The notes below the pieces were generated by a model that searched no databases, was not told the DNA's origin, and saw nothing but the letters and a program-made list of their open reading frames with translations. A program made the position numbers and the translations under genes. 64,000 nt of DNA from Acidobacteriota bacterium (GTDB lineage Bacteria; Acidobacteriota; Thermoanaerobaculia; Gp7-AA8), in contig JAJXWV010000026.1 in assembly GCA_021781455.1 (NCBI GenBank), positions 40,304 to 104,303 of the forward strand, read 5' to 3'. Below are positions 8,836-61,368 of the stretch, in pieces (position 1 is the first letter of the stretch; the number at the start of each line of letters is the position of its first letter).

Positions 8836-8894
8836 GGGGTGACCGGGTCACCGTGTCACCAAGTCACCCGGTGACCCGGTGACTCGGTGACCCC
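8836..8894. repeat. Tandem-word-arm hairpin HAH1 (word GTCACC, spacing about 8 nt)
   Basis: GGGTCACCGTGTCACCAAGTCACCC is followed by GGTGACCCGGTGACTCGGTGACCCC, forming an imperfect hairpin. Lies between the cytochrome c stop and the ECF sigma start. Confidence 0.6.
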
Positions 8895-8908
8895 GAAGTC
8901 GATCCCAC

Positions 8909-9478
8909 TCATCGCGACACAGGCGGAGTCGCCGGCGGTGCCGCATTCGGCGCGGCGGGCGCCGCGCCCGGACGCTGCGGCGCTGGACCGGCCGGCATCA
9001 CCTCGGGAACGGTGTGGCCGCGATGGCAGGTGAAGCAGGTGACCGCTTCTCCGGCCGCTTCTCCGTGCGCGTTGACCTTGCTGATGTACTCCGTGTTGAT
9101 GGCGCGAGTCATCAGAAGCATCGTGCGGGCAGTCCGCTTCTCCGGCTTGGCGTCATTCGGAAAATCGAACTCCGGCCGCGGCTCGGTGGCCGTCTGCACA
9201 TGGCAGTGCTCGCAGCGCGTGCCGAGGGAGCGGGAAATGCCGCGCATCGTGGCGATGAGCTCGTCGTGCGTGATGTTCGGCGAGAGAACGCGCAGGTTGT
9301 GGAACTCGAGGTTGTCCGGCTGGGCGGGCATCGCCTTCTGCTGGCTGACCGCGGCACATCCGGCGATGATCAGGAAAACGGACACGATCGCACTGCGTCG
9401 AATCAACACGAGCCTCCTCAGGTCGAGATGGGGCAACATCGTAGCCGTACGAGTGAGAAGACGTGCGAGGGGTGACAC
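8909..9478 (-). CDS. c-type cytochrome lipoprotein, similar to photosynthetic reaction-centre cytochrome c subunit family
   Basis: Two CxxCH motifs, CEHCH and CFTCH. Context FHNLRVL...M..ISRSLGTRCEHCH. Lipobox IIAGC. The track start is GTG at 9478; an alternative ATG lies at 9439. Confidence 0.7.
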   Translation of the reverse strand: MSPLARLLTRTATMLPHLDLRRLVLIRRSAIVSVFLIIAGCAAVSQQKAMPAQPDNLEFHNLRVLSPNITHDELIATMRGISRSLGTRCEHCHVQTATEPRPEFDFPNDAKPEKRTARTMLLMTRAINTEYISKVNAHGEAAGEAVTCFTCHRGHTVPEVMPAGPAPQRPGAAPAAPNAAPPATPPVSR

Positions 9479-9493
9479 GGCGTCACCGATCCG

Positions 9494-11515
9494 TCACCAC
9501 CCGATTCCGTAGTCCTCGCCGTGGTTGCTCGAGCCTCCCCACATCGTGCCGTGGGCCTGATCGAACAGGATCGCGTTGATCGGTCCCGAGGTTCGGGCCT
9601 CGAAGATCTGACTGAAGCCCATCCGCCGCAGCTCACTGCGGACGTACGGCGGGGTGTCGTCGTTCAGGAGGATGCGTCCCGGCGCGATGTCGTGATTTCC
9701 GAACGAGCTTCGCATCTGGAAGCTGTTGAAGTTCGGCGCCTCGGTCGCTTCCTGCACCGTGAAACCGAATTCGACGATGTCGAGAAAGAACTGCAGCAGG
9801 TTCTGATCCTGGCTGTCGCCGCCCTGCACCGAAAAACAGAGGAACGGCTTGCCGCCCTTGAAGGCCAGCGTCGGCGTCAGTGTCACTCGCGGACGCTTCC
9901 CTGGCTCCACCACGTTGAACGGACCCTCGGCCGGATCGGTGACGAAACTCTGCATCCTCTCGCTCAGTCCGACGCCGCTGTGCCCGGCGATGACCGCCGG
10001 GACCCAGCCGCCGCTCGGAGTCACGGAGATCACCCAGCCGTCTGCGTCGGCAGCTTCGACCGAGGTCGTGCCGGCGTAAAAAGTCTCGAGGTAGCTGTCG
10101 CTCTGGTTTCCCGTGGCCCGAGTCTCCGCGGCGGTCGCCCGCGGCGCGAACTCCGCGGTCTGTGCCGCAGCGGGTCGAATCCACGATCCGGATGACGAAG
10201 CGGGACGCGTGATGTTCGCGGTCGACCACCAGCTCTTGAGCAGGTCTTTGTACGGGTTGGTCTCGCCCTGGAACGGATACGGATCGCCGGGACCGAGGCG
10301 CGGCTCGTTGTGATCCGGGTTGATCAGCTTGGCCCGCTCGCGGGCGTACTCCTTCGACATCAACCCGCGAATCGGCTCGACCGGCGGGAAATAGATGTCG
10401 CCGTAGTAGAAATCGCGGTCGGCAAAGGCGAGGCTCATGGCCTGGTAGACGGTGTTGATGTAGCGCGACGTGTTGAAGCCCATCGACTTCAGGTCGAAGT
10501 TCTCGAGGATGTTCAGCGACGCCAGCATGGCCGGTCCCTGAGTCCACTCGCGGAGCTTGTAGACCTCGATGCCGCGGTAGTTGGTCGAGAGCGGCTCCTC
10601 GATGCGCACCTGCCATTTCGCGAGATCGTCAGCGGTGAAGAGCCCGCCCTGTTCCTGAACGCTGCGGACGATCTCCTTCGCGATGTCGCCCTTGTAGAAT
10701 CGGTCGTAGGCAGCGTAAATCGCCTCTTTGCGGCTCTTCCCGTGCTTCAGAGCGTCCTGCTCGGTCTCGACGAGCTTTCGCAGCGTCGCCGCGAGATCGG
10801 GCTGCCGGAACATCTCACCGGGATACGGGCCTTCGTGGTGTCCGCCGACCGGAGCGGCCACGGCGCGATCCTGCGCGGGCGTCGGTCCCCCCGATGTGGT
10901 CGCCGGCGCGGCGGCCGCATTGGCGCCATTCGACTCGTGCACGAGGAACGTCTTCCGCGAGTAGGGCCACTGCTTGATGCGCGCCTTCTGCGATTCGATG
11001 GTGTTCACGAGCTGCGCTTCGATCGGATAGCCGTCCGCCATCTGGATGGCCGGCGCGAGCACGTCCTTCAGCGACAGCTTTCCGTACTCCGCCTCCATGA
11101 CCATCAGGCCGCCGGGCGTGCCGGGCGTGACCGCGGCCAGAGGACCGTACTCCGGCGGATACTTCATGCCCTTGCTGTGGAAGAACTCCGGGGTCGCACC
11201 TGTCGGGGCGACGCCGAGAGCATCGATGCCGATGACCTTCTTGGTCTGCGGGTTGTAGATGAGGGCCTGGGTCTCGCCGCCCCAGCTCAGCGTGTCCCAC
11301 ATCGTGCAGGTGGCGGCCAGCATGGCCATGGCCGCGTCGATGGCATTTCCGCCGCGGTCGAAGATCATGGCGCCCGCGGTGGCGGCGAGGGGCTTGCCCG
11401 TGATGGCCATCCAGTGAGCGCCGTGAAGAGGCGGCTTCTCGGTGCGCATCTGGGCGGTGGCGGTCGAGGCGAGCACGAGAATCGAGAGCACGAGGAAGAT
11501 CCGTTTCGCGGTCAT
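9494..11515 (-). CDS. ggt: Gamma-glutamyltransferase
   Basis: The ORF is trimmed to MTAKRIFLVLSILVLASTATA (signal peptide) at 11515. GGT-like N-terminus AITGKPLAATAGAMIFDRGGNAIDAAMAM and autoprocessing region YAGTTSVEAADADGW. The longer track ORF (to 12400) overlaps the divergent gene. Confidence 0.85.
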   Translation of the reverse strand: MTAKRIFLVLSILVLASTATAQMRTEKPPLHGAHWMAITGKPLAATAGAMIFDRGGNAIDAAMAMLAATCTMWDTLSWGGETQALIYNPQTKKVIGIDALGVAPTGATPEFFHSKGMKYPPEYGPLAAVTPGTPGGLMVMEAEYGKLSLKDVLAPAIQMADGYPIEAQLVNTIESQKARIKQWPYSRKTFLVHESNGANAAAAPATTSGGPTPAQDRAVAAPVGGHHEGPYPGEMFRQPDLAATLRKLVETEQDALKHGKSRKEAIYAAYDRFYKGDIAKEIVRSVQEQGGLFTADDLAKWQVRIEEPLSTNYRGIEVYKLREWTQGPAMLASLNILENFDLKSMGFNTSRYINTVYQAMSLAFADRDFYYGDIYFPPVEPIRGLMSKEYARERAKLINPDHNEPRLGPGDPYPFQGETNPYKDLLKSWWSTANITRPASSSGSWIRPAAAQTAEFAPRATAAETRATGNQSDSYLETFYAGTTSVEAADADGWVISVTPSGGWVPAVIAGHSGVGLSERMQSFVTDPAEGPFNVVEPGKRPRVTLTPTLAFKGGKPFLCFSVQGGDSQDQNLLQFFLDIVEFGFTVQEATEAPNFNSFQMRSSFGNHDIAPGRILLNDDTPPYVRSELRRMGFSQIFEARTSGPINAILFDQAHGTMWGGSSNHGEDYGIGW

Positions 11516-11550
11516 GAGGCCCTCCGGGGCGGGGAGTCTATCGAATCCCG

Positions 11551-11688
11551 GAGCGCAGAGGGCAGAGCGCGGAGCGCGGAGCGCAGGTTGCATGGATGTG
11601 TGGCCGCGAGCACAATTCCATTCGTTCCAACAGGAATCGCATGACCGGCGCGCACTCACCCGCGCTCTGCCCTCTCCGCTCTGCGCTC
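11551..11688. repeat. Tandem-word-arm hairpin HAH2 (words GCAGAGG/GCGGAGC; 74-nt loop)
   Basis: Left arm GAGCGCAGAGGGCAGAGCGCGGAGCGCGGAGCGCAG at 11551-11586. Right arm CGCGCTCTGCCCTCTCCGCTCTGCGCTC at 11661-11688. Lies in the divergent region between ggt and the MBL-fold gene. Confidence 0.7.
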
Positions 11689-11707
11689 TTCGAAAAAGGA
11701 GCCCGCG

Positions 11708-12463: not shown

Positions 12464-12469
12464 GCCGAT

Positions 12470-12578
12470 GGAGCGCCGGCTGCCAGCCGGCCGGTGCGGC
12501 GGCGGCCCGCGCCGCCGCTACTCGAATCACCGCGCGTGCTGGCAGCCCGCGCACCGGCCGGCAGGCTGCCGGCGCTCC
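12470..12578. terminator. Long GC-rich inverted repeat between convergent genes (possible bidirectional terminator)
   Basis: GGAGCGCCGGCTGCCAGCCGGCCGGTGCG at 12470-12498 pairs with CGCACCGGCCGGCAGGCTGCCGGCGCTCC at 12550-12578, 27 of 29 positions complementary. There is no U-tract. Confidence 0.4.
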
Positions 12579-12583
12579 CCTCG

Positions 12584-12998: not shown

Positions 12999-13019
12999 CG
13001 ATCGCCGGACGCTCGCGAC

Positions 13020-14333
<1,314 letters not shown>

Positions 14334-14345
14334 GGTTTCTGTGCC

Positions 14346-14452
14346 GGTTCCTCGGGTTCCTCGGGTTCCTCGGGTTCCTCGGGGTTCCTCGGGCTTCCTG
14401 GCACCGAGGAACCGAGGAACTCCGAGGAACTCCGAGGAACTCCGAGGAACTC
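14346..14452. repeat. Tandem-word-arm hairpin HAH3 (GGTTCCTCG x5 / CCGAGGAACT x5)
   Basis: The left arm has a 9-nt period and the right arm a 10-nt period of the reverse complement, with essentially no loop. Fills the nuoF-nuoE gap. Confidence 0.85.
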
Positions 14453-14982
14453 TATTTCAGCTTTTCGAGCAGCGACTCCATCTTCTGAACGTCCATCTCT
14501 TCGTGGTAGTCGTTGTTGACCTGCACGACCGGGGCCGTGCCGCAGGAGCCGAGGCACTCGACCTCGGTCACTGTGAACAGGCCGTCCGGCGTGGTCTGGC
14601 CCGGCTCGATCTTCAGCTTGTCGCAGAGATCGTCGTAGATGTCGTACGCGTTGCGGATCATGCAGCTCAGATTGGTGCAGACCTGCAGGTGGTATTTCCC
14701 GACCGGCTTCTGGTTGTACATGTTGTAGAACGACACGACACCGAAGACGTTGGCGGGCGACAGGTCGAGCAGCGACGACACGTAGTGCACCGCCTCGGGC
14801 GAGATCCAGCCCCACGTCTCCTGGACGAGATGGAGAGTCGGCAGCAGCGCCGCTTCCTTGCTCGGATACCTCGTCAGGATGTAGTCGAATTTCTTCTTCG
14901 CCTCGGGCGGAAACTCGACGCTCTTTGCGGGATCGGCGAAGCGGTCCTTCGCGTAGGGATTGTCGGGGTGAAGTTCAGCCAT
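14452..14982 (-). CDS. nuoE: NADH-quinone oxidoreductase subunit E
   Basis: 176 aa. 2Fe-2S cysteines in HLQVCTNLSC...ECLGSCGTAP. Confidence 0.95.
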   Translation of the reverse strand: MAELHPDNPYAKDRFADPAKSVEFPPEAKKKFDYILTRYPSKEAALLPTLHLVQETWGWISPEAVHYVSSLLDLSPANVFGVVSFYNMYNQKPVGKYHLQVCTNLSCMIRNAYDIYDDLCDKLKIEPGQTTPDGLFTVTEVECLGSCGTAPVVQVNNDYHEEMDVQKMESLLEKLK

Positions 14983-14988
14983 TAATAA

Positions 14989-15060
14989 GTCCTGAGTCCT
15001 GAGTCCTGAGTCCTGAGTCTGAGTTAGGTCACTCAGGACTCAGGACTCAGCACTCAGGAC
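14989..15060. repeat. Tandem-word-arm hairpin HAH4 (GTCCTGA x4-5 / TCAGGAC)
   Basis: Left arm 14989-15024, loop TAGGTC, right arm 15031-15060. Fills the nuoE-nuoA gap and abuts the nuoA stop. Confidence 0.9.
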
Positions 15061-15443
15061 TATTTCCAGTCGAAAGCCTTCTTCTTCCACACGTACACGT
15101 ATCCGACGCCGAGCAGTGCGATGAAGAGCAGCATCTCGGTGAAGAGGAAGAGGCCGCTCGGACCGTGCGAAGCGCCGCGATAGATGACGGCCCAGGGGTA
15201 GAGGAACGCTGCTTCGATGTCGAACAGGATGAAGAGCATGGCGATCTGGTAGAAGCGGACGTTCATGCGCTTGCGGTTCTGGTCGAGCAGAGGCACTCCG
15301 CTCTCATAGGGCGCGAGCTTCGAGGGATTGCGCTGGTGGCGGCCGATCACCGAGTTCAGGCCGAGGATCGTCCCGGCCACGACGACGGCGAAGAGCAGCA
15401 TCAGGAGGATCGGAACAAACGTGTGGGTCATAGACGGCGGCAC
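15060..15443 (-). CDS. nuoA: NADH-quinone oxidoreductase subunit A
   Basis: 127 aa with three TM helices. Carries the NuoA/ND3 signature YESGVP...RFYQIAMLFILFDIEAAFLYPWA. Confidence 0.9.
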   Translation of the reverse strand: MPPSMTHTFVPILLMLLFAVVVAGTILGLNSVIGRHQRNPSKLAPYESGVPLLDQNRKRMNVRFYQIAMLFILFDIEAAFLYPWAVIYRGASHGPSGLFLFTEMLLFIALLGVGYVYVWKKKAFDWK

Positions 15444-17436: not shown

Positions 17437-17577
17437 GAGTGCTGAGTACTGAGTGCTGAGTACTGAGTTCATTCGCTGAGCTGTGAGTTCGAGACTCTTG
17501 TGACGAGCGGCTGAGGGATCGTTAGAATCGGCCGCTCGCATTCTCGACTCAGTACTCAGCACTCAGTACTCAGCACT
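17437..17577. repeat. Tandem-word-arm hairpin HAH5 (alternating CTGAGTA/CTGAGTG; 78-nt loop)
   Basis: Left arm 17437-17468 and right arm 17547-17577 are perfectly complementary over 31 nt. The loop holds an inner stem, CGAGCGGC...GCCGCTCG. Confidence 0.9.
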
Positions 17578-19660: not shown

Positions 19661-19780
19661 AGCGGGTAGCGAGCAGCGGGTAGCGGGTAGGAGGCATGAT
19701 TCGAGGGTGCGGATCGTCACTGAAAAGCGAGGCGATTCCGCGCGCTGCCCCGACCCGCTACACGCTGCCTGCTACCCGCT
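19661..19780. repeat. Tandem-word-arm hairpin HAH6 (word GCGGGTA; 62-nt loop)
   Basis: Left arm AGCGGGTAGCGAGCAGCGGGTAGCGGGTAGG at 19661-19691. Right arm CCCGCTACACGCTGCCTGCTACCCGCT at 19754-19780, with 2 mismatches. Lies between the PPIase start and the nuoG promoter. Confidence 0.75.
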
Positions 19781-19788
19781 TGTTTTCG

Positions 19789-19817
19789 TTGACGCTCCAG
19801 ATTTGAATCACTATGAT
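19789..19817 (+). promoter_or_regulatory. Sigma-70-type promoter candidate for the nuoG operon
   Basis: TTGACG (19789-19794), a 17-nt spacer, then TATGAT (19812-19817), about 120 nt upstream of nuoG. Confidence 0.5.
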
Positions 19818-19934: not shown

Positions 19935-21536
19935 ATGGCCAAAGTTACGATCGACGGAATCGAAGTCGAAGTTCAAGAAGGGATCAATGTGATCGAAGCC
20001 GCCAAAGCGGCCGACATCCACGTCCCCCACTTCTGCTATCACCCCTCTCTCAGCGTCGTCGGCCAGTGCCGGATGTGCCTGGTGGAGATCGAAGGCATGC
20101 CGAAGCTTCAGGTCGGCTGCGGCACCACCGTTCGCGACGGCATGAAGATCCACGTCTGGAGCGAGAAGGTCGACAAGGCGCGCAGAGGCCAGATGGAGTT
20201 CCTGCTCATCAACCACCCGCTCGACTGCCCGATCTGCGACAAAGCCGGCGAGTGCCCGCTGCAGGACTACGCCTTCAATTACGGCAGCGTGGTCTCGCGC
20301 TTTACCGACACCAAGCGCACCTATCCGGGCATGGACCGCACGGCCATCGGGCCGCACGTCGTGCAGAACATGAACCGCTGCATCCACTGCACGCGCTGCA
20401 TCCGCTTCTGCGCGGAGGTCACCGGAACCGACGAACTGGCATTCTTCAAGCGCGGCGCGTCGACCGAGGTCGGCGTGTTTCCCGGCGTGCCGCTCGACAA
20501 CTGGATGAGCGCGTGCGTGACCGACGTCTGTCCCACCGGCGCGCTGACGACGCGTGAGTTCCGTTTCGAATCGCGCGTCTGGAACCTCGAGTCCACCGAT
20601 TCCATCTGCAACGGCTGCGACATCGGGTGCAACATCTTCATCGGCCAGCGCAACGGGCAGATCTTCCGCTACCGGCCGCGCGTGAATCCCGAGGTGAACG
20701 ATCACTGGCTCTGCGACTACGGCCGCTTCTCGTACGAGCGCTACGACACCGACCGCGTGGTCGTGCCCAAGGTGCGCACTGACGATGAATACCTCGGCAT
20801 CGCCACATGGGTCGAAGCCCTCGACGCCATCGAGAAGGCGGTGCGCGGCACGACTGGCGACAGGATCGCCGTCATCGCTTCGGCCAATCACACCAACGAA
20901 GAGGCCTGGCTGGCGAAGAAGCTCTTCGTCGACCATCTGAAAGCAGCCACCGTCGACGTCATGGCCGACCCGATCGGCCCGATCAAGATGAAGTCGCGCA
21001 CCGAGTGGCTCGTCGGAGCCCAGGGCGCGCCGAACCTTCGCGGCGTGAAGAGCGTCGGGATTGGCGAGAAGACGTCCCGCACCGTCGAGGAGCTGATGAC
21101 CAGGGGCGCCGACGGAATCGACGTCCTCTACATCGTCGACTCCGCATTCAGCGAACGCGCCAGCGACCCCGCCGTCGTGGCCAATCTCCGCAAGGCCAAG
21201 TTCCTCATCGTGCACTCGTGGGATGCGGGCCATCCGCTGTCCGACGCCGCCGACGTGCTCCTCCCCGGCGCCATCCACGCCGAGAAGGAAGGGACGTTCA
21301 CGAATCTTCAGAACCGTGTGCAGCGAATCCATCAGGCCTACGCGCCGAAGGGGCAGGCAGTCGGTGACCTCGAGATCCTCCGCAGGATCGGCGCGCGGCT
21401 GTTCCCACAGGCTGAAGACTTCAAGTCGATCGATGTGTTCGACCTGTTCGATGAAATGAGAGAGAGCGTCCCGGCGCTCCAGAACCTCGTGCCGTCCGAA
21501 GACGCGGTCGGCGAGTACGTCGTGCAGAACGCATAG
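19935..21536 (+). CDS. nuoG: NADH-quinone oxidoreductase subunit G (short form)
   Basis: MAKVTIDGIEVEV start; the track begins at GTG 19914. 2Fe-2S and 4Fe-4S motifs CYHPSLSVVGQCRMC, HPLDCPICDKAGEC and CIHCTRCIRFC. Its 534 aa lack the long C-terminal domain of many NuoG proteins. Confidence 0.9.
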   Translation: MAKVTIDGIEVEVQEGINVIEAAKAADIHVPHFCYHPSLSVVGQCRMCLVEIEGMPKLQVGCGTTVRDGMKIHVWSEKVDKARRGQMEFLLINHPLDCPICDKAGECPLQDYAFNYGSVVSRFTDTKRTYPGMDRTAIGPHVVQNMNRCIHCTRCIRFCAEVTGTDELAFFKRGASTEVGVFPGVPLDNWMSACVTDVCPTGALTTREFRFESRVWNLESTDSICNGCDIGCNIFIGQRNGQIFRYRPRVNPEVNDHWLCDYGRFSYERYDTDRVVVPKVRTDDEYLGIATWVEALDAIEKAVRGTTGDRIAVIASANHTNEEAWLAKKLFVDHLKAATVDVMADPIGPIKMKSRTEWLVGAQGAPNLRGVKSVGIGEKTSRTVEELMTRGADGIDVLYIVDSAFSERASDPAVVANLRKAKFLIVHSWDAGHPLSDAADVLLPGAIHAEKEGTFTNLQNRVQRIHQAYAPKGQAVGDLEILRRIGARLFPQAEDFKSIDVFDLFDEMRESVPALQNLVPSEDAVGEYVVQNA

Positions 21537-21547
21537 AGGACGAATCG

Positions 21548-22648
21548 ATGGCATTCGACGCAACCGACATCGTCCTTTCGATCGTAAAAATCGCAATCGT
21601 GCTCTCGTTCGTGCTCAGCGTGACTCCGGTCATGGCCTGGGTCGAGCGCCGCGGCGCCGGCATGATCCAGGACCGGCCCGGACCGAACCGGGTGGGACCG
21701 TTCGGGCTCCTGCAGCCGTTTGCCGACGCGCTGAAGTTCCTGACGAAGGAAGACATCATCCCGGCCCAGGCGAACAAGCTGCTGTACACGCTGGCGCCCG
21801 CCTTCGGCCTTCTCCCCGCGTTGACGACCATCGCCGTCGTGCCGTGGGGCCGGCCTTTCGTGATTCCTCAGATGACCATCGGCGGCCACGTCCTGTTCAC
21901 CGGCGGCCGTCTGTTCGAGCCGATCATCGCCGACGTGAACGCCGGGATCCTGGTGGTCTTCGCGCTGGCTTCGCTGAGCGTCTACGGCGTGACCACGGCG
22001 GGGTGGTCTTCGGCCAACAAGTACTCCATGTTCGGAGCCATCCGCTCCTCGGCGCAGATGATCTCGTACGAGCTCTCGCTGGCCATGGCGGCGCTGGGAG
22101 TCCTGCTCGTGACCGGCTCGCTCCGCCTCAGCGACGTCGTGTGGACACAGGCCGGCTCGTTCGTGCTTTTCGACACGATCAGGGTGCCGGCCTGGAACTG
22201 CTTCTCGCCCGGCATGTGGCTGAGCATGGTCGTCTTCATCGCCGCCGCATTCGCCGAAACGAACCGCCTCCCCTTCGATTTTGCGGAGGCGGAAGCCGAG
22301 CTGGTGGCCGGGTATCACACCGAGTATTCGTCGATGAAGTTCGCGCTGTTCTTCATGTCCGAGTACATGTCGATGGCCACCATGTCGGCGGTCATCGTGA
22401 CGCTGTTCTTCGGCGGATGGGGCATTCCCTGGTATCACGTCCCGCCGACGTTCCTCGGTTTCCTGCTGTCGGCGATCGCGTTCCTGATCAAGATCTGCAT
22501 CATGTTGTTCGTCTTCGTCTGGGTCCGCTGGACGATCCCGCGGCTCAAGTACGACATCCTCATGCGCCTCGGCTGGAAGGTGTTCCTGCCGCTGGCCATC
22601 GTGAACCTCGTGATCGTGGCGGGGTTCATTGCGAAGGGCTGGATTTGA
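21548..22648 (+). CDS. nuoH: NADH-quinone oxidoreductase subunit H
   Basis: 366 aa, polytopic. NuoH/ND1 motifs VMAWVERRGAGMIQDRPGPNRVGPFGLLQPFADALK and AETNRLPFDFAEAEAELVAGYHTEYS. Confidence 0.95.
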   Translation: MAFDATDIVLSIVKIAIVLSFVLSVTPVMAWVERRGAGMIQDRPGPNRVGPFGLLQPFADALKFLTKEDIIPAQANKLLYTLAPAFGLLPALTTIAVVPWGRPFVIPQMTIGGHVLFTGGRLFEPIIADVNAGILVVFALASLSVYGVTTAGWSSANKYSMFGAIRSSAQMISYELSLAMAALGVLLVTGSLRLSDVVWTQAGSFVLFDTIRVPAWNCFSPGMWLSMVVFIAAAFAETNRLPFDFAEAEAELVAGYHTEYSSMKFALFFMSEYMSMATMSAVIVTLFFGGWGIPWYHVPPTFLGFLLSAIAFLIKICIMLFVFVWVRWTIPRLKYDILMRLGWKVFLPLAIVNLVIVAGFIAKGWI

Positions 22649-22657
22649 AACCGATGA

Positions 22658-22752
22658 CGGTTGCGCGGTTGCGCGGTTACGGGGTTGCGCGGTGTGATTC
22701 AAGGACACCAGCGCACGTCGCCACCGCGGAACCGCGAAACCGCGGAACCGCG
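22658..22752. repeat. Tandem-word-arm hairpin HAH7 (octamers GGTTGCGC / GCGGAACC; 31-nt loop)
   Basis: Left arm 22658-22692 and right arm 22724-22752, with about one mismatch per octamer. Fills the nuoH-nuoJ gap. Confidence 0.7.
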
Positions 22753-22757
22753 TAATC

Positions 22758-23311
<554 letters not shown>

Positions 23312-23315
<4 letters not shown>

Positions 23316-23614
23316 TTCCGACCACGTGGTTCCTGATCCTCGGCGCGATTCTGTTCTCCATCGGAGTGTGCGGGGTGCTGACCCGCAGAAACGGCATCAC
23401 CATCTTCATGTCCATCGAGCTGATGGTGAACGCGGTGAACCTGACGTTCCTGGCCTACGCCCGCCAGTTCAATCAGCTCCACGGGCTCATCTTCGTGTTT
23501 TTCATCATGGCGATCGCGGCCGCAGAAGCCGCGGTCGGGCTCGCCATCTTCATCTCGCTGTTCCATCACCGCGAGACGATCGATGTCGACGAAGCGAATC
23601 TGATGCACTGGTAG
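23312..23614 (+). CDS. nuoK: NADH-quinone oxidoreductase subunit K
   Basis: 100 aa, [44 protein letters not shown]. Its ATG overlaps the nuoJ stop in an ATGA arrangement. Confidence 0.9.
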
Positions 23615-23618
23615 AAAC

Positions 23619-23700
23619 GAGTGCTGAGTACTGAGTGCTGAGTACTGAGTACTGAGTGGTTTGTGGCGGACTCAGTACTCAGCACTCAGTACTCAGCACT
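23619..23700. repeat. Tandem-word-arm hairpin HAH8 (alternating CTGAGTA/CTGAGTG)
   Basis: Left arm 23619-23657, 12-nt loop, right arm 23670-23700. The left arm carries one extra ACTGAGT unit. Shares the 5' flank GAAACGAGTGCTGAG with HAH5. Confidence 0.9.
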
Positions 23701-23723
23701 GGCGTAGGGGTCGCATTGCTTCG

Positions 23724-24152: not shown

Positions 24153-24170
24153 ACGCAGACGCGGGGAGAA

Positions 24171-24203
24171 CCTCCTCACGTTCTGCGAAGAAAACGTGAG
24201 GAG
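24171..24203 (+). terminator. Perfect 11-bp stem-loop after the acidic ORF (no U-tract)
   Basis: CTCCTCACGTT, a 10-nt loop, then AACGTGAGGAG, about 20 nt after the stop. nuoL lies downstream, so this can be at most a partial terminator or a processing site. Confidence 0.35.
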
Positions 24204-24207
24204 ATAC

Positions 24208-24282
24208 GAGTCCTGAGTGCTGAGTCCTGAGTCCTGAGTAGAACGGCTTTACTCAGGACTCAGGACTCAGGACTCAGGACTC
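24208..24282. repeat. Tandem-word-arm hairpin HAH9 (GTCCTGA family)
   Basis: Left arm 24208-24239 contains one GTGCTGA unit. The loop is 11 nt. Right arm 24251-24282 is (ACTCAGG)x4. Ends 9 nt before the nuoL ATG. Confidence 0.9.
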
Positions 24283-24291
24283 ACCCCGCAG

Positions 24292-26214
24292 ATGCTCAAC
24301 GCACTCTGGCTGATTCCCGCCGCACCGTTCGCCGGCTTCGTGGTGAACGGACTGTTCGGCAAGCGCGCCGGCAAGTCGTTCGTCAGCGCCGTCGCCATCC
24401 TTGGCTCGCTGCTGGCCGCCATCTTCGGCACGGTGGCCGTCTTCCAGTACCACGCGCTCTACCCCCACGGCGAGCGCTACGTCGACCTCGTCTACAACTG
24501 GTTCAGCTCCGGCAACGTCGGCGCCGACGTGGCCTTCCAGCTCGATCCCCTCTCCGTGGTCATGCTGCTCGTCGTGACCTGGGTCGGATTCCTGATCCAC
24601 GTCTACTCCGTCGGCTACATGCACGACGACACCGGGTACTTCCGCTATTTCGCCTACCTGAACCTCTTCCTGTCCGAGATGCTGATCCTGGTGCTGGGGA
24701 GCAGCTACCTGGTGATGTTCGTCGGATGGGAGGGAGTCGGGCTCTGTTCGTACCTGCTGATCGGCTTCTACTACAAGACCGATTACGCTCCTGCCGCGGG
24801 CACGAAGGCGTTCGTCCTCAATCGCATCGGCGATTTCGGGTTCCTGATCGCGATGTTCCTGATGTTCGCCTACTTCGGATCGGTGGACTTCGCGCGCGTC
24901 TCGCAGCTCGCGGCGGGAGGCGGCGTCGAGCCGTGGCTGCTCACGGCCATCTGCCTGCTCCTGTTCCTCGGGGCCACTGGCAAGTCCGCGCAGATCCCGC
25001 TTTACGTCTGGCTGCCCGACGCCATGGCCGGCCCGACTCCCGTGTCCGCTCTCATCCACGCGGCCACGATGGTCACGGCCGGCGTGTACATGGTGGCGCG
25101 CTCGAACGTCCTCTATCGGCTGGCACCCGACGCCATGATGGTCGTGGCGGTCATCGGCGGCGCCACGGCTCTCTTCGCGGCCACCATCGCCCTGCGGCAG
25201 TGGGACATCAAGAAAGTCCTCGCCTACTCCACGATCTCGCAGCTGGGATTCATGTTCATCGGCGTGGGCGTCGGCGCCTTCAGCGCGGGCGTGTTCCACC
25301 TGGTCACCCACGCGTTCTTCAAGGCCTGCCTCTTTCTCGGATCCGGCTCGGTCATTCACGCCATGAGCGGCGAGCAGGACATGCGCTCCATGGGCGGGTT
25401 GAAGACGAAGATCCCGCACACCTACCGCACCTTTGCCATCGCCACCTACGCCATCGCCGGGCTTCCTCTGGCCTCGGGCTTCTTCTCGAAGGACGAGATC
25501 CTGGCCTCGGCCTGGGCCACGCCGTACTTCCCGACGGTCGGAAAGATCGTCTGGGCGCTCGGGACCATCGCCGCGTTCTGCACGGCGTTCTACATGTACC
25601 GGCTGCTCTACCTCACCTTCGACGGCAAGTTCCGGGGAACGCACGAGCAGGAGCATCACCTGCACGAGTCGCCCTCGTCGATGGTCGTGCCGCTGTGGAT
25701 CCTGGCCATCCTGGCGATCTTCGGCGGGCTCCTCGGATTGCCCGAGATCTTCCACGCGCCGAACTTCATCGGCAGCTGGCTGGCCGGGGCCGTGCCGGAG
25801 ATCCCCGGTGCACACCATCTCATCGAGATTCCGGCCGGCAGCGAGTGGACGGTCATGATCGTCTCGACGCTCATCGCCCTAGCGGGCTGGTGGGTGGCCC
25901 GGTCGATGTACAAGGACAAGCAGCTCGACACCGATCGCGCCATCGAACAGCGTGTGCCAGGGCTTGCCCGCGCAGTCGAGAACAAGTGGTACGTCGACGA
26001 GTTTTACGGAGCCACGGTCGTCGGCCCGCTCAAGCAGCTGTCGATCTTCTTCTGGCGCATCGTCGACGGCATCATCGACGGGATCGCGGCCATGCTCGGC
26101 TACATCGTGGCCGGGATCGGCGATCTGCTGCGCTTCTTCCAGACCGGGAACGTGCGCAATTACGCGCTGATGCTGTTCGCCGGGGTGGTCGTCTTCATCT
26201 GGATCTTCACGTGA
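24292..26214 (+). CDS. nuoL: NADH-quinone oxidoreductase subunit L
   Basis: 640 aa antiporter-like subunit. Motifs WEGVGLCSYLLIGFYY and TGKSAQIPLYVWLPDAMAGPTPVSALIHAATMV. Confidence 0.95.
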   Translation: MLNALWLIPAAPFAGFVVNGLFGKRAGKSFVSAVAILGSLLAAIFGTVAVFQYHALYPHGERYVDLVYNWFSSGNVGADVAFQLDPLSVVMLLVVTWVGFLIHVYSVGYMHDDTGYFRYFAYLNLFLSEMLILVLGSSYLVMFVGWEGVGLCSYLLIGFYYKTDYAPAAGTKAFVLNRIGDFGFLIAMFLMFAYFGSVDFARVSQLAAGGGVEPWLLTAICLLLFLGATGKSAQIPLYVWLPDAMAGPTPVSALIHAATMVTAGVYMVARSNVLYRLAPDAMMVVAVIGGATALFAATIALRQWDIKKVLAYSTISQLGFMFIGVGVGAFSAGVFHLVTHAFFKACLFLGSGSVIHAMSGEQDMRSMGGLKTKIPHTYRTFAIATYAIAGLPLASGFFSKDEILASAWATPYFPTVGKIVWALGTIAAFCTAFYMYRLLYLTFDGKFRGTHEQEHHLHESPSSMVVPLWILAILAIFGGLLGLPEIFHAPNFIGSWLAGAVPEIPGAHHLIEIPAGSEWTVMIVSTLIALAGWWVARSMYKDKQLDTDRAIEQRVPGLARAVENKWYVDEFYGATVVGPLKQLSIFFWRIVDGIIDGIAAMLGYIVAGIGDLLRFFQTGNVRNYALMLFAGVVVFIWIFT

Positions 26215-26283
26215 GACCGCAGACCGCAGATCGCAGACCGCAGGAGAACGAACTGCGGTCTGCGGTCTGCGGTCTGCGATCTG
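26214..26283. repeat. Tandem-word-arm hairpin HAH10 (GCAGACC x4 / GGTCTGC x4)
   Basis: Left arm 26214-26243, 9-nt loop, right arm 26253-26283. Starts at the last base of the nuoL stop codon and fills the nuoL-nuoM gap. Confidence 0.9.
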
Positions 26284-26293
26284 AGGTTTAATA

Positions 26294-29385: not shown

Positions 29386-29394
29386 CCAACGGCG

Positions 29395-35092: not shown

Positions 35093-35226
35093 CGGTTACG
35101 CGGTTGCGCAGTTCCGCGGTTCCGCGGTGCTCGATGGACGAACTGAAATGCAAACACCGTTGACTTGCCTGCAGATCGCGACGCTGGCACACAGCGGAAC
35201 CGCGCAAGCGCGGAACCGCGCAACCC
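35093..35226. repeat. Tandem-word-arm hairpin HAH12 (octamers GGTTGCGC/GGTTCCGC; 66-nt loop)
   Basis: Left arm 35093-35127 and right arm 35194-35226, the same word family as HAH7. Lies between the KAS gene and the methyltransferase gene. Confidence 0.7.
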
Positions 35227-35935: not shown

Positions 35936-37149
35936 ATGTCGACGTCGCCGTGATCGGCGCGGGCCCGGCCGGCTCCGTGCTGGCCGCTCTCCTCGCATGG
36001 AGAGGCGCACGCGTCGCCCTGATCGAGCGCACGACTTTTCCTCGCGACAAAGTCTGCGGCGAGTTTCTCTCCTACGACGCGCTGCCGCTGCTCGAGCGGC
36101 TCAACCTCGTCGACGATCTCGACCATCATGGATCTCCCACCATCAGGCGCTGCCGGATCGTCGGCCGCCATCGCCAGTACGAGTTTCTGCTTCCCGAACC
36201 GGCCCGCGGCGTGTCGCGACTGCTCCTCGATGACCTCCTCTTCCGGAAGGCCGTCGCTCATGGCGCGGAGCCGTGGGAGGGATGGACTGCGGACAGCATC
36301 GAGGCGCACTCGGTCGCCCTCTCCCGCAACGGCGAGCATGTCTCGATCGCGGCGCGCGTGGTCGCCGGAGCCTGGGGCCGCTGGGGCCGGTTCGACGCCC
36401 AGCTCGGGCGTGCATTCGTCCGCGACCGGGCGCATCGCAACTTCGGATTCAAGCGCCATTACCGCCGCGAGCCAGCGTCAGCCGCCCTCCAGCACGACGT
36501 CATCGAGTTGCATTCGCTCGGCCGCGGATACCTCGGTGTCAACGACATCGAGGGCGGCCTGACCAACATCTGCGGGCTGGTTCACTCCAGCCGCCTGGCG
36601 GGCCATCGCGGGCGGTGGGAATCGTTCGTCGACATGCTCCGGGCCGAGGAGCCGTCGCTCGAGACGATGTACTCGGCGTATGAGCCGGCTCAGGACGACT
36701 TCCTTTCATCGGAGCCGGTCATTTTCCGCGCGCGCCGCCCCGTCGAAGGCGGCCTCTTCATGGCCGGCGACGCTTCGGGCGTGGTGGATCCGCTGACCGG
36801 CAACGGCATGGCCATGGCCATTCAATCCGCCCTTCTCCTGGCACCGCTCCTGTTGCGGCTCCTCGCCAACGGCGCGCAGCGCGCGGCCATCGAGAGTGAG
36901 TATGCGGTTGCGCATGCGGCGATGTTTCGTCCTCGCATCGCCTGGAGCCGGCGCATCGCCGGGCTGCTGTCTCACCCGACGGCTCTCGACAACGCGCTCC
37001 GCATTGCTCGCGGAAATGCCATCGGCGGGTTTCTCGTGCGCCGCACGCGCTCGGATCACGCCGCCGTCGCTCGCCTCGCCGATGTCTTTTTCAAGAGCGC
37101 AGAGGGCAGAGTGCAGAGCGCAGGAGGGGCGCCGGTCGGGCCGTCCTGA
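35932..37149 (+). CDS. FAD-dependent oxidoreductase (geranylgeranyl-reductase / aromatic-hydroxylase-like)
   Basis: GTG start. Dinucleotide fold VDVAVIGAGPAGSVLAALLAWRGARVALIER, plus the later motif MAGDASGVVDPLTGNGM. The last 18 codons are encoded by the left arm of HAH13. Confidence 0.75.
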   Translation: MNVDVAVIGAGPAGSVLAALLAWRGARVALIERTTFPRDKVCGEFLSYDALPLLERLNLVDDLDHHGSPTIRRCRIVGRHRQYEFLLPEPARGVSRLLLDDLLFRKAVAHGAEPWEGWTADSIEAHSVALSRNGEHVSIAARVVAGAWGRWGRFDAQLGRAFVRDRAHRNFGFKRHYRREPASAALQHDVIELHSLGRGYLGVNDIEGGLTNICGLVHSSRLAGHRGRWESFVDMLRAEEPSLETMYSAYEPAQDDFLSSEPVIFRARRPVEGGLFMAGDASGVVDPLTGNGMAMAIQSALLLAPLLLRLLANGAQRAAIESEYAVAHAAMFRPRIAWSRRIAGLLSHPTALDNALRIARGNAIGGFLVRRTRSDHAAVARLADVFFKSAEGRVQSAGGAPVGPS

Positions 37150-37233
37150 GAGAACTCCCTGCAGCGCGGGCCAACCGCCGCAACGTACTCGCCTATCCTT
37201 GCCTGCCCTCCGCCCTCCGCCCTTCTGCCCTCT
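37096..37233. repeat. Tandem-word-arm hairpin HAH13 (GCAGAGG-type / CCCTCYG-type; 77-nt loop)
   Basis: Left arm AGCGCAGAGGGCAGAGTGCAGAGCGCAGG at 37096-37124. Right arm CCTGCCCTCCGCCCTCCGCCCTTCTGCCCTCT at 37202-37233. The pairing is imperfect. Confidence 0.55.
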
Positions 37234-45169: not shown

Positions 45170-45172
45170 TGC

Positions 45173-45270
45173 GGCTCTTGGCTCCTGGCTCCTGGCTCCT
45201 GGCTCTTCGGAGCACGAGCCGAGCTGGAGCTAAGAGTCGATAGCGCACCCAAGAGCCAACAGCAAAGAGC
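45173..45270. repeat. Tandem-word-arm hairpin HAH14 (GGCTCCT/GGCTCTT; degenerate right arm)
   Basis: The left arm (GGCTCYT)x5 at 45173-45210 is clear. The right arm at 45219-45270 retains AAGAGCC-type units but with many mismatches. Fills the nuoCD-nuoI gap. Confidence 0.55.
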
Positions 45271-45277
45271 TAACGAA

Positions 45278-47566: not shown

Positions 47567-47764
47567 TGTCAGCTCCTGAGCACTCGAATCGCGCAGGCGC
47601 GACACCGGAGAGAAGAAACGTTCGATCATTCCCCCTCTCCCCGCCGCAGCGGGGAGAGGGCCGGGTGAGGGGTCTCGTTCTGGTTCAAAAGGAGACCCCT
47701 CCGCCTTCGGCACCTTCTCCCCGCTGCGGCGGGGAGAAGGGCAACGAAACGCCAGAGCCCGCAT
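47567..47764. repeat. 190-bp nested-hairpin repeat element, copy 2
   Basis: Collinear with 2204-2393 in the same orientation, with a small CTGGTT insertion in the inner loop. Lies between the def start and the MFS stop. Confidence 0.85.
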
Positions 47765-49187: not shown

Positions 49188-49242
49188 GGGCGGGCGAAGT
49201 GTATAGCAGCGAATAGTGCCATCCGATGAGGTTTGTCATGCC

Positions 49243-49335
49243 GAGATCGCAGAGGGCAGATCGCAGGTTCAGGCGGACCCGCGGAACAAGCACGACTTTT
49301 CGCTGACCCACCTGCGATCTGCCATCTGCCATCTC
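49243..49335. repeat. Tandem-word-arm hairpin HAH15 (GCAGATC/GCAGAGG; 41-nt loop)
   Basis: GAGATCGCAGAGGGCAGATCGCAGGT at 49243-49268 pairs with ACCTGCGATCTGCCATCTGCCATCTC at 49310-49335. Lies in the divergent region between the MFS and HAD genes. Confidence 0.75.
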
Positions 49336-49356
49336 GTCGTCGTAGACTGCGCGGCC

Positions 49357-56675: not shown

Positions 56676-56705
56676 GGGACTGCCGCAAGGCAGTCCCTTT
56701 TTCTT
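56676..56705 (+). terminator. Canonical Rho-independent terminator of the cytochrome c unit
   Basis: GGGACTGCC, loop GCAA, GGCAGTCCC, followed by TTTTTCTT. Lies 29 nt after the stop. Confidence 0.85.
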
Positions 56706-56797
56706 AGTGCTGAGTACTGAGTGCTGAGTACTGAGTCATTGCGGGCGAATGCACTCAGTACTCAGCACTCAGTACTCAGCACTCAGTACTCAGCACT
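56706..56797. repeat. Tandem-word-arm hairpin HAH16 (alternating CTGAGTA/CTGAGTG)
   Basis: Left arm 56706-56736 (31 nt), 16-nt loop, right arm 56753-56797 (45 nt, two extra units). Starts immediately after the canonical terminator. Confidence 0.9.
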
Positions 56798-57366: not shown

Positions 57367-57367
57367 G

Positions 57368-59299: not shown

Positions 59300-59481
59300 C
59301 GCATCGAGCTCAACAATTGCTTTTCAGGTGACGTGCCGTGGAACCGCGACCGTAATCCTGTTCTTCCACGGGCCCACGGAAGCTGCTTACAATGCCGCGC
59401 TACCGAACCATTATCGCACCCCCGCCGCAGAATTGAGTTCCGCGCGCGGGCGTTGTTCCCGATGTTCCCGAGGAGGACCGT

Positions 59482-60738: not shown

Positions 60739-60743
60739 GAGCT

Positions 60744-60800
60744 CCCCGTCACTCTGAGCCGGCGTAACCGCAGCCCCGTCACTCTGCAACCGCGCAACGC
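60744..60800 (+). repeat. Post-stop motif, two tandem copies after the diiron gene
   Basis: CCCCGTCACTCTGAGCCGGCGTAACCGCA at 60744-60772 and CCCCGTCACTCTGCAACCGCGCAACGC at 60774-60800. They start 6 nt after the stop. Confidence 0.6.
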
Positions 60801-60863
60801 CGTTTCCCTTTCGTAACTCCTCTGCTGTCACCATTTCCGCCCGTGCTACTCTGGATCATCAAC

Positions 60864-61289
60864 ATGAAACGTGTGGCGGTCGTGGCCCTGCTCTCGCTTT
60901 TCTGCGCGTGTGGCAAGCTGAAGGAGCCGACGGCACCCGGGACTGGAGGGGGAGATCCGATCGACCCGACGGCGACCTTCTCGCGCGTACAGGCCGAGAT
61001 CTTCTCGCCTACTTGTGCAGCCATCGGCTGCCATGATCCCCTCGGCCAACAACAGGGAATGGTCCTCTCAGCCGGGCGCGCCTACGCGAACACCGTCGGC
61101 AAGCAGAGCACCGAGATGCCACAGCTCGCCCGCGTCCAGCCGGGCGATCCCGCCAATTCCTACCTCTATCGCAAGATCACCGGCGCCGGCATCACCGGCA
61201 ACCGCATGCCGCAGGGCGGACCTTACCTGAGCGACGCCCAGATCAAACTGGTCCGCGACTGGATCCGGCGCGGGGCGCCTAACGACTAG
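60864..61289 (+). CDS. Lipoprotein with Cys-x4-Cys-His motif (cytochrome-c-like / PSCyt-like domain)
   Basis: Trimmed to MKRVAVVALLSLFCACG. Motif IFSPTCAAIGCHD, plus a C-terminal ...NRMPQGGPYLSDAQIKLVRDWIRRGAP resembling planctomycete-type cytochrome domains, recalled from memory. Confidence 0.6.
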   Translation: MKRVAVVALLSLFCACGKLKEPTAPGTGGGDPIDPTATFSRVQAEIFSPTCAAIGCHDPLGQQQGMVLSAGRAYANTVGKQSTEMPQLARVQPGDPANSYLYRKITGAGITGNRMPQGGPYLSDAQIKLVRDWIRRGAPND

Positions 61290-61293
61290 GGAT

Positions 61294-61368
61294 AGATGTT
61301 TGAATGCCGAATGTCGAATGTAGGCGCCGCCCGCGCCTGCGTTCATTCAACATTCGACATCTGAATCT
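61294..61368. repeat. Tandem-word-arm hairpin HAH17 (AT-richer word CGAATGT)
   Basis: AGATGTTTGAATGCCGAATGTCGAATGTAGGCG at 61294-61326 pairs with CGCCTGCGTTCATTCAACATTCGACATCTGAATCT at 61334-61368, with a 7-nt loop. Confidence 0.75.

Follow-up and report, generated by a model that had tools for sequence, protein, structure and literature searches.

Inverted pairs of tandem heptamer arrays form long hairpins in the gene junctions of soil Thermoanaerobaculia

A 64-kb stretch of DNA from an Acidobacteriota bacterium (Thermoanaerobaculia; contig JAJXWV010000026.1, positions 40,304 to 104,303), referred to here as the window, carries hairpins of an unusual design, in which one arm is a tandem array of a short word, typically of 7 nt, and the other arm is an array of the reverse-complement word. 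These paired-array hairpins are real and far from chance, and they represent a lineage-wide feature of soil Thermoanaerobaculia, not one sequence family. Below, we describe their architecture in the window, the rules that they follow in related genomes and the manner in which they come and go between close relatives, and then weigh how they might be made and kept.

Results

Hairpins with periodic arms in the window

Arrays in the window were located with Tandem Repeats Finder and complementary arms with an inverted-repeat finder, while our own hairpin scan considered arms of at least 18 nt with complementarity of at least 80% and a span of at most 260 nt. Together, these tools yielded 16 paired loci and one solo array (Table 1). 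A first-pass annotation, made from the sequence alone, had counted 17 copies; the 16 pairs stand, with complementary arrays recovered by both finders at every locus that it gave as an example, while 61409-61441 turned out to be an unpaired array. In each pair, the 5' arm is a tandem array with a period of 7 nt (sometimes 8-10) and the 3' arm is the reverse-complement array, the two being separated by 1-80 nt, in most cases by a short loop of unique sequence. Individual arrays hold 2.9-6.7 copies according to Tandem Repeats Finder, and the arms are 24-46 nt long and 80-100% complementary according to the inverted-repeat finder. The predicted RNA stems of the window loci comprise 24-45 bp with folding energies of -53 to -98 kcal/mol. 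Folding z-scores lie between -9.7 and -11.7 at six loci, with -5.4 at 22658 and -3.5 at 45173, the weakest member.

Of the 18 long hairpins that our scan found in the window, 12 have periodic arms; the loci at 22658, 37094, 45173 and 61294 are looser members beyond these 12. The first-pass annotation had proposed a comparison with shuffled sequence, and this spoke clearly for the pattern, as 30 dinucleotide-preserving shuffles of the window gave a mean of 1.07 long hairpins and no periodic hairpin at all. At least eight unrelated words were seen by the scan within these 64 kb. The CTGAGTN word is used at five window loci, in agreement with the earlier remark that several words are single-base variants of it, and three loci share identical 31-nt arms around unrelated loops.

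Seven of the hairpins sit exactly in junctions of the nuo (complex I) genes, namely A/E, E/F, H/J, K/DUF6335, DUF6335/L, L/M and CD/I, and three lie in divergent spacers (11551, 19661 and 49242). The description of the loci as intergenic holds generally, yet is uncertain for 37094-37232, which overlaps the end of a predicted open reading frame (ORF). There is about one hairpin per 4 kb in the window, as compared with about one per 15 kb in relatives.

Architecture and placement across relatives

Species-representative genomes and metagenomes each contributed 80 loci to the clade sample, which totals 2.1 Mb. All were taken around nuoE, and the sample is thus centred on one genomic neighbourhood. 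The relatives of NuoE come from soil metagenome-assembled genomes (MAGs) of Thermoanaerobaculia (Acidobacteriota), some of them labelled 'gp7'. In these approximately 160 related loci, our scan found 150 periodic hairpins, of which 142 are unique. The period is 7 in 106 of the unique hairpins (75%), 8 in 31 (22%) and another value in only 5, although periods 5, 6 and 9-11 were detectable by the scan. When arrays rather than hairpins were taken as the starting point, period-6 and period-9 arrays were found in genes and were unpaired, while a reverse-complement partner was present within 160 nt for 207 of 249 intergenic period-7 arrays (83%, leaving 17% unpaired) and for 57 of 60 period-8 arrays (95%).

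The hairpins also show a strong polarity. The 5' arm contains more G than C in 118 hairpins and less in 13, with an arm composition of 38% G and 17% C and roughly equal A and T. As the element is a palindrome, this G-first polarity is valid on both strands, and it is seen in all 14 hairpins of divergent spacers and all 3 of convergent ones. The sample contains 58 distinct period-7 words, the commonest of which (AGTCCTG and AGTGCTG) are without G runs.

With respect to gene context, the flanking genes are co-directional for 116 hairpins (87%), divergent for 14 and convergent for 3, the corresponding numbers for non-periodic hairpins in the same DNA being 165, 36 and 46. Convergent spacers hold 3 of 126 hairpins, where 12 would be expected from the number of spacers (p=0.0013; Fisher p=2.6e-6 relative to the non-periodic hairpins). 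It should be noted that the nuo junctions in these counts were defined by homology, while contexts elsewhere come from our own crude gene caller, based on GC content at third codon positions (GC3). Relative to the stop codon, the stem in the nuo junctions starts at -3 to +10 nt (median -1), and -2 to +28 nt (median 8.5) separate its end from the ATG. Hairpins of divergent spacers often precede a start codon by 4-50 nt.

Between hairpin and ATG, the sequence is rich in A, C and U and poor in G. Shine-Dalgarno-like motifs upstream of nuoE and nuoF were seen in 10-24% of hairpin junctions and in 6-22% of short junctions, and the sequences suggest that initiation in this clade may be independent of the Shine-Dalgarno sequence.

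Turnover between relatives

Operon junctions that are otherwise empty measure 2-6 nt, and where a hairpin is present it occupies the whole spacer. The nuoA-nuoE spacer is at most 15 nt long in 134 of 158 loci and 33-114 nt long in the other 24. For nuoE-nuoF, about 96 of 145 loci have a spacer of no more than 30 nt and about 49 have one of 46-360 nt. Among 26 relatives, the nuoH-nuoJ spacer is short in 12 and long in 12, while the nuoG-nuoH and nuoJ-nuoK spacers are always short. This bimodality of junction length indicates that the hairpins are optional inserts in compact junctions such as TAGCAATG or TAATG. When filled and empty sites were compared, no target-site duplication was found; the short ancestral spacer is replaced, not interrupted.

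The words at a given junction change as well. About 20 unrelated words occur at the nuoE-nuoF junction across lineages, and a drifting series of related words (CTGAGTN, CCGAGTG, CCCAGTG) at the nuoA-nuoE junction. Species that are 94-96% identical differ both in the sites that are occupied and in the word used. One relative with about 98% identical coding DNA (L084) has a 45-nt spacer without any array in place of the nuoE-nuoF hairpin, and its nuoA-nuoE site contains GTACTGA/GTGCTGA units where the window has GTCCTGA. Another two loci (L098 and L110), at 95% identity, differ in hairpin presence at four sites within 12 kb. In each of the pairs L021/L022 and L104/L105, the two members use unrelated words for the same site. 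Conversely, hairpins that are shared by relatives differ by single, unmirrored substitutions and by indels in the loop, rather than by the changes in unit number for which the first-pass annotation had suggested looking at orthologous sites.

Two hairpins at different sites use the same word in 20% of pairs within a genome but in only 4.3% of pairs between unrelated genomes. The first-pass annotation had regarded the family as defined by architecture and not by sequence; the unrelated words at the single nuoE-nuoF junction bear this out, while the roughly five-fold recurrence of words within a genome qualifies it. Even so, in 27 of 28 pairs of same-word hairpins the two loops bear no relation to each other (z near 0); in the remaining pair, a REP-like (repetitive extragenic palindromic) element is nested in both.

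A complementary change in the 3' arm matches 159 of the 329 unit variants in 5' arms, where about 3% would be expected for independent arms by our own estimate, which is not the output of a tool. Among the stem mismatches of operon hairpins, G·U (69) and A·C (66) are equally frequent on the sense strand (p=0.86). In long non-periodic hairpins between co-directional genes of the related loci, A·C mismatches outnumber G·U in the sense orientation (122 to 68, p=1e-4). Selection on the sense RNA would lead one to expect the reverse of this excess, which may come from repeated REP-like copies with fixed mismatches.

Some loci display larger rearrangements. A whole hairpin with adjacent sequence is tandemly duplicated in the nuoE-nuoF spacer of L103 (279 nt, the duplicate including the last nuoE codons) and at 7547-7719 of L061, indicating that the sites are also prone to larger duplications. 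In the nuoA-nuoE spacer of L061, only a 3' arm, (ACTCAGG)n, is kept, which looks like the remnant of a hairpin after loss of the other arm and the loop. The nuoE-nuoF loops of L091 and L067 contain a small stem followed by TTTT (e.g., CCCGCCCACCCTGGGCGTTTTC), a terminator-like core within periodic arms.

Features and gene neighborhoods in the window

The coordinates of all members are given in Table 1. The complex I genes of the window, in which nuoC and nuoD are fused, form three clusters: nuoA-E-F (- strand, 13020-15443), nuoG-H-J-K-DUF6335-L-M-N-rex (+ strand, 19935-30057) and nuoB-CD-I (+ strand, 42804-45928). A sigma-70-like promoter match, TTGACG-17-TATGAT (10/12), is found at 19789-19817 on the + strand, between the 19661-19780 hairpin and nuoG; if this promoter is real, the hairpin lies outside the nuoG transcript. 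An ordinary terminator had been said to abut one of the hairpins, and indeed a stem with a T tract is present at 56676-56705, adjoining 56706-56797.

Table 1 Periodic hairpins of the window, with the solo array and an ordinary terminator. Copy numbers follow each word as x; dG is in kcal/mol and z is the folding z-score; a dot denotes no strand.
Position	Strand	Element	Flanking genes	Fold or basis
8837..8893	.	Octamer-arm hairpin (GGGTCACC / GGTGACCC), period 8, 5.5 and 3.5 copies; arms 24 nt, 21 paired; loop ~1 nt	Cytochrome-c-like gene and ECF sigma gene, both - strand	dG -55.7
11551..11689	.	Heptamer hairpin (GAGCGCA/GAGGGCA ... GCGCTCT), loop ~70 nt	Divergent: gamma-glutamyltranspeptidase start (-, 11515) / ODP gene start (+, 11708)	dG -83.1
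14346..14452	.	(GGTTCCTCG)x5.8 / (CCGAGGAACT)x5.1; first unit directly adjoins nuoE stop codon	Fills nuoE-nuoF junction	dG -89.6, z -11.2
14988..15061	.	(GTCCTGA)x5.4 / (TCAGGAC)x4.4; 31 nt, 97%	Fills nuoA-nuoE junction	dG -61.2, z -11.0
17437..17577	.	Alternating GTGCTGA/GTACTGA arms, 31 nt, 100% complementary; loop 78 nt	PPIase gene and saccharopine dehydrogenase gene, both - strand	dG -98.3
19661..19780	.	(AGCGGGT)x4.3 / complement, loop ~60 nt	Divergent: PPIase gene (-) / nuoG (+)	dG -82.4
22658..22752	.	Octamer arms (CGGTTGCG x4.5 / ACCGCGGA x3.8)	Fills nuoH-nuoJ junction	dG -67.4, z -5.4
23619..23700	.	Alternating GTGCTGA/GTACTGA arms (5.6 / 4.4 copies), 31 nt, 100%	nuoK / DUF6335 gene	dG -65.1, z -10.7
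24208..24283	.	(GTCCTGA)x4.6 / (TCAGGAC)x4.7; 33 nt, 97%	DUF6335 gene / nuoL	dG -70.7, z -9.7
26214..26287	.	(GCAGACC)x4.3 / (GGTCTGC)x5	Fills nuoL-nuoM junction	dG -64.9, z -11.7
35093..35225	.	Octamer arms (CGGTTCCG/CGGTTGCG x4.5 / GCGCAACC x4), 44 nt, 80%; loop ~60 nt	Directly follows beta-ketoacyl synthase gene	dG -74.8
37094..37232	.	Degenerate pair (AGAGCGC)x4.3 ... (GCCCTCC)x3.9, loop ~80 nt; left arm overlaps predicted ORF end	FAD-binding oxidoreductase gene / LON-domain gene	dG -71.7
45173..45275	.	(GGCTCCT)x4.7 with degenerate complementary units downstream; weakest member	Fused nuoCD / nuoI	dG -54, z -3.5
49242..49336	.	(AGATCGC/AGAGGGC) / (CCATCTG), 27 nt, 93%; loop 41 nt	Divergent: MFS transporter gene (-) / HAD hydrolase gene (+)	dG -56.2
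56676..56705	+	Ordinary stem + T-tract terminator (GGGACTGCC-GCAA-GGCAGTCCC TTTTT); non-member, listed for contrast		Sequence and fold
56706..56797	.	Alternating GTGCTGA/GTACTGA arms (4.4 / 6.7 copies)	Directly after cytochrome c gene terminator	dG -65, z -10.9
61294..61368	.	~3 (GAATGYC) units per arm around GC-rich inner stem; 61302-61321 period 7, 2.9 copies	Small cytochrome-c-like gene / DUF5777 gene	Fold
61409..61441	.	Solo C-rich array (CTGCCCT)x4.3, no complementary partner nearby		Tandem Repeats Finder

The genome also has non-periodic, REP-like palindromes, found in the window at 2268-2372, 47626-47747, 5331-5452, 12470-12578 and 63532-63615. Two copies are of the CCCTTCTCCCCGCCGCAGCGGGGAGAAGGG type and one is TCATTCCGAGCG...CGAGGAATC. 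Relatives of the latter (CATCCTGAGCG...CGAAGGATC) take up the nuoE-nuoF junction of L062, L026 and L108, and L121 and L122 have such copies within periodic-hairpin loops.

Discussion

Origin and maintenance of the hairpins

We hold, with moderate confidence, that the hairpins are palindromic simple-sequence repeats (SSRs) of the DNA level that are tolerated in operons because they fold on themselves. According to this scheme, a short array of a 7-8-nt word would arise by polymerase slippage, and its inverted copy would then be made by strand or template switching, i.e., by fold-back copying. With such an origin, the element would be born as a near-perfect palindrome containing whatever unit variants the array already had. 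It would decay by ordinary point substitution, as supported by the counts presented above, and would be lost, replaced or duplicated wholesale rather than unit by unit through slippage. Persistence of the hairpins is almost confined to spacers ahead of a gene, for the most part operon junctions. There, an insert may be tolerable only when it is self-folding, as stop and start codons would then stay close and no naked untranslated RNA would be exposed. Copying or recombination of arms may be responsible for the recurrence of words within a genome. Once transcribed, a double-stranded RNA of 25-45 bp would, from general knowledge, be a substrate of RNase III, a block to 3' exonucleases and an obstacle to terminating ribosomes, effects that we regard as consequences and not as the raison d'être of the hairpins. 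That the hairpins are made and kept at the DNA level, and owe their form to no selection on a single transcript, is argued by the mirrored variants, by the absence of a wobble bias on the sense strand, by a polarity that is independent of gene context and by gain, loss and replacement as whole units with ordinary substitution once present.

This reading has weaknesses that need to be considered. The steps of genesis are all reconstructed. Slippage with fold-back copying does not predict the 9:1 G-first polarity, leaves the 7-8-nt step unaccounted for, and predicts neither that 31-nt arms are identical at three loci whose loops are unrelated nor that words are shared within a genome. Also unpredicted is the scarcity in convergent spacers (a four- to eight-fold deficit), and as a neutral insert should do least harm precisely there, this deficit counts against the scheme. 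The repeated occupation of the nuoE-nuoF junction (in about one third of lineages) and of the nuoH-nuoJ junction (in about half) could reflect functional selection. Moreover, the wobble test is low-powered if the elements are young and if long stems tolerate single mismatches. One could instead see the polarity, the 7-8-nt step and the inverted pairing as the footprint of a dedicated generative process common to two distant groups of GC-rich bacteria, Thermoanaerobaculia and Xanthomonas, the heptamer arrays of the latter being compared below. Such a process might add repeats to both 3' ends of a break, or might consist of polymerase fold-back copying that works only with a G-rich new strand. 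We find this quite doubtful. If true, however, such a process would write structure-defined, sequence-free palindromes upstream of genes, and would be a new mutational or mobile mechanism, not ordinary slippage.

The deficit in convergent spacers and the repeated use of the same junctions are what keep a function at the RNA level in contention, a possibility that we regard as rather unlikely. Here, the intercistronic stems would be selected for RNase III cutting or for stopping 3' exonucleases, would give cistrons different stabilities or tune downstream translation, and would consist of repeats because these are the easiest route to a long stem. The preponderance of co-directional contexts, the near absence between convergent genes relative to non-periodic hairpins, the position of the stems from the stop codon to a few nucleotides before the next start, the proximity to start codons in divergent spacers and the great predicted stability would all suit such a role, as would the use of unrelated words for the same structure at the nuoE-nuoF junction. 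REP elements offer an analogy, since those of E. coli reportedly have comparable effects on mRNA stability and translation termination. Yet most relatives lack a hairpin at the same junctions, having a spacer of 2-6 nt instead, and the relative with nearly identical coding DNA does without one of the hairpins outright. G·U is not favored over A·C on the sense strand, Shine-Dalgarno-like motifs are equally rare with and without a hairpin, and a stem requires neither a period of 7 or 8 nor a G-first arm, the latter being found in divergent spacers too. The families of words within genomes, on the other hand, keep alive the notion of a non-autonomous mobile element, similar to REPINs or MITEs (miniature inverted-repeat transposable elements). 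It would be copied by an enzyme that is encoded elsewhere and that recognizes the hairpin form or a genome-specific word, inserting at gene junctions or at existing hairpins. Besides the identical arms at three window loci, this would account for two same-word hairpins in L110 that are absent from its sister L098, and for sister species whose different words at one site each belong to the family of their own genome (AGTGCTG in L021, AAGGATG in L022); that REP-like elements use the same junctions and sit in periodic-hairpin loops would also fit. A copied element would, however, retain its interior, whereas same-word loops are almost always unrelated. In addition, the whole short spacer is replaced without target-site duplication or a clean insertion boundary, the variety of words in 64 kb would need many specificities, and no transposase or Y1/RAYT domain was found among the approximately 55 window ORFs scanned. 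We therefore consider mobilization in trans to be improbable.

Still further from what the data favor is the proposal of a protein that recognizes a 7-nt word in single-stranded DNA or RNA, with its binding sites arrayed in the arms and hidden or presented by the hairpin. A strict period, a G-rich arm that consistently comes first and words that recur within a genome are compatible with it, CTGAGTN arrays are also found in unrelated viral contigs, and the TAACTGA arrays of Beggiatoaceae have been suggested to be regulatory (PMC4679880). Against this stand the dozens of unrelated words across relatives, with at least eight in the window alone, the almost complete pairing of the arms, which would hide the sites, and the lack of an identified candidate protein; we give the proposal very little weight. 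Finally, chimeric inverted repeats produced in assembly or sequencing deserve practically no credence. Short-read assemblers can break or mis-join at repeats, and one ENA contig (L002) does end 18 nt before the hairpin at 8837. Nonetheless, the sequence is identical in three assemblies, and independent assemblies, absence from which the first-pass annotation had named as a refutation, do hold the same hairpins, two other ENA assemblies being 100% and 99.99% identical. The window sequence is likewise found with its hairpins in contig DAHYCD010000076.1 of MAG GCA_027388875.1. The architecture recurs in MAGs that come from many different projects and assemblers, and likewise in two chromosomes of 5.9 and 6.6 Mb that each form a single contig and that we take to be long-read assemblies, and orthologous hairpins differ between relatives by ordinary substitutions.

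Several further candidates were considered and dropped. The first-pass annotation had set the hairpins apart from ordinary terminators, from CRISPR arrays and from the REP-like palindrome of the same genome, and we agree on all three. Intrinsic terminators do not apply, as the hairpins have no T tracts, were not picked up by a terminator scan and are nearly missing between convergent genes. CRISPR loci have direct repeats of 24-48 nt with unique spacers, while the period here is 7-10 nt and there are no spacers. REP and REPIN elements are excluded by the periodic arms and by the absence of a conserved GTAG/CGTC head, as judged by eye and not by a motif search, and the REP-like palindromes of the window (e.g., at 2268-2372, 47626-47747 and 5331-5452) are separate entities. 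A MITE was dismissed for want of a target-site duplication and of related loops. The search of Rfam that had been recommended gave no match at the gathering threshold on either strand of the 64-kb window.

Sequestration of ribosome-binding sites was rejected because Shine-Dalgarno-like motifs are rare in hairpin and short junctions alike; a few cases do resemble it, with AGGA in the final unit ahead of nuoE and GAGG ahead of nuoM. Stop signals in all frames were considered as well, since 52 of 106 period-7 units of 5' arms contain a stop codon, as compared with 33% expected, yet this excess is modest and inflated by shared words, and was not used. The idea that the arrays grew around an older core hairpin was abandoned as the loops have a mean z of -0.86, similar to -0.51 in control intergenic segments, with 18% of loops and 15% of controls below -2; a few loops do hold REP-like elements or small terminator-like stems. 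The DUF6335 gene is not a hairpin-flanked cassette, since 31 of 34 relatives have it between nuoK and nuoL, which makes it typical of the clade. The tight distance from stop codon to hairpin, which might be taken as evidence of function, is trivial given an ancestral junction of 2-6 nt. G-quadruplexes do not suit words that mostly lack G runs, and Chi sites were set aside by reasoning, there being far too many different words. A link to phages proved uninformative, as (CTGAGTN)4 arrays in viral contigs are mostly long and unpaired. Arrays of (CTGAGTN)4 or longer occur in 31 IMG/VR stretches (L164-L194) with GC contents of 0.35 to 0.65, and paired versions in a few of them (L179, L183, L188 and L193). 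The CTGAGTN array word shares ACTGA with the TAACTGA repeats of Beggiatoaceae.

Implications

Clear rules for inverted pairs of heptamer arrays are now documented across a bacterial class. These rules, comprising a period of 7-8, a G-first polarity, near-obligatory pairing and avoidance of convergent spacers, make the question of why heptamer repeats are abundant a testable one. If the hairpins are indeed made and kept at the DNA level, they would be a natural record of bacterial genomes making long palindromes from nothing, and would show which inserts are tolerable in a tightly coupled operon. If they are instead functional, much of the operon expression in a dominant uncultured soil lineage would pass through RNA duplexes of 25-45 bp, which would matter for the interpretation of metatranscriptomes and for the expression of these operons. 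In practical terms, the hairpins probably break short-read assemblies, the arrays can mislead gene callers by being read as ORF ends, and the hairpins are sensitive markers for distinguishing close strains.

Comparison with known systems

Rho-independent terminators also consist of a GC-rich stem-loop after a gene, yet the hairpins described here have no T tract, have stems that are 3-5 times longer and are almost absent between convergent genes. REP elements affect mRNA stability and translation termination. Together with BIMEs and REPINs, they resemble our hairpins in being dispersed intergenic hairpins, often located in operons near stop codons, that form genome-specific families and vary in presence between close strains. 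A REP unit is, however, an imperfect palindrome of 20-40 nt and not a tandem array, and REPs comprise one or a few high-copy sequences per genome that are tied to a RAYT transposase. The REP arm is a single imperfect palindrome with a conserved GTAG/CGTC head (PMC3733652).

The STRR (short tandemly repeated repetitive) sequences of heterocystous cyanobacteria, of which only 'a few' are paired in Anabaena as compared with 83-95% here, are closer in design. STRR units are said to lengthen a helix of cyanobacterial RNase P RNA. Like the TAACTGA repeats of Beggiatoaceae and cyanobacteria, they are intergenic, directly repeated heptamers of 2-6 copies with lineage-specific words, often placed directly upstream of start codons (PMC4679880). 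The Beggiatoa genome contains 169 direct heptamer sets and one inverted set (PMC4679880). The definition of STRRs, as direct heptamer arrays of a few fixed words, is not suited to the present elements, which have an acidobacterial host, other words and arrays that are nearly always paired. More generally, the long SSRs of prokaryotes are described as having units of 5-11 nt, with 7 the commonest, and as being intergenic, and those with heptanucleotide units were ascribed to polymerase slippage that is poorly corrected by mismatch repair (Mrazek, Guo and Shah 2007, as cited in PMC4679880 and PMC4060949). As relayed by these later papers, that work deals with single direct arrays, and an inverted partner, a polarity and placement at gene junctions are not part of it.

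The literature search returned nothing that describes such hairpins in Acidobacteria and, apart from the work on Xanthomonas, Beggiatoa and STRRs, no named element. The first-pass annotation had known of no paired, mutually complementary heptamer arrays forming a dispersed family, but this is contradicted by Xanthomonas, where convergent pairs of GGGAATC arrays were already reported (PMC4692102). In X. campestris and X. axonopodis, 70-75 pairs per genome, out of about 185 arrays, are 'in convergent orientation', so that roughly three quarters of the arrays are paired (Rehm et al. 2015, PLoS One, PMC4692102). The arrays typically have about 4 units, are 89-93% intergenic, mostly between co-oriented genes, and lie close to the upstream ORF (mean 28 nt) in a GC-rich genome; sister species differ in repeat length while the single or paired type is kept (PMC4692102). 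Rehm et al. noted possible stem-loops or cruciforms and discussed the arrays as G-quadruplex motifs (PMC4692102). Since these arrays are convergent, the G-rich array comes first, giving the same polarity as here, and this suggests by analogy that a general mechanism may be at work. The two systems are hence alike in the 7-nt unit, the few copies, the convergent pairing, the G-rich first array, and the intergenic location between co-oriented genes near the upstream ORF. They differ in that Xanthomonas uses essentially one word, GGGA(A/N)T(C/N), which is quadruplex-capable, while dozens of words are used here, most of them incapable of it (e.g., CTGAGTN and GCAGACC). Convergent-gene spacers, moreover, account for 16% in Xanthomonas and 2% here, and the present hairpins belong to a different phylum and lie inside tightly packed operon junctions. 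The hairpins of Thermoanaerobaculia are thus a multi-word variant of a known, little-studied kind of element, the inverted pair of heptamer simple-sequence repeats.

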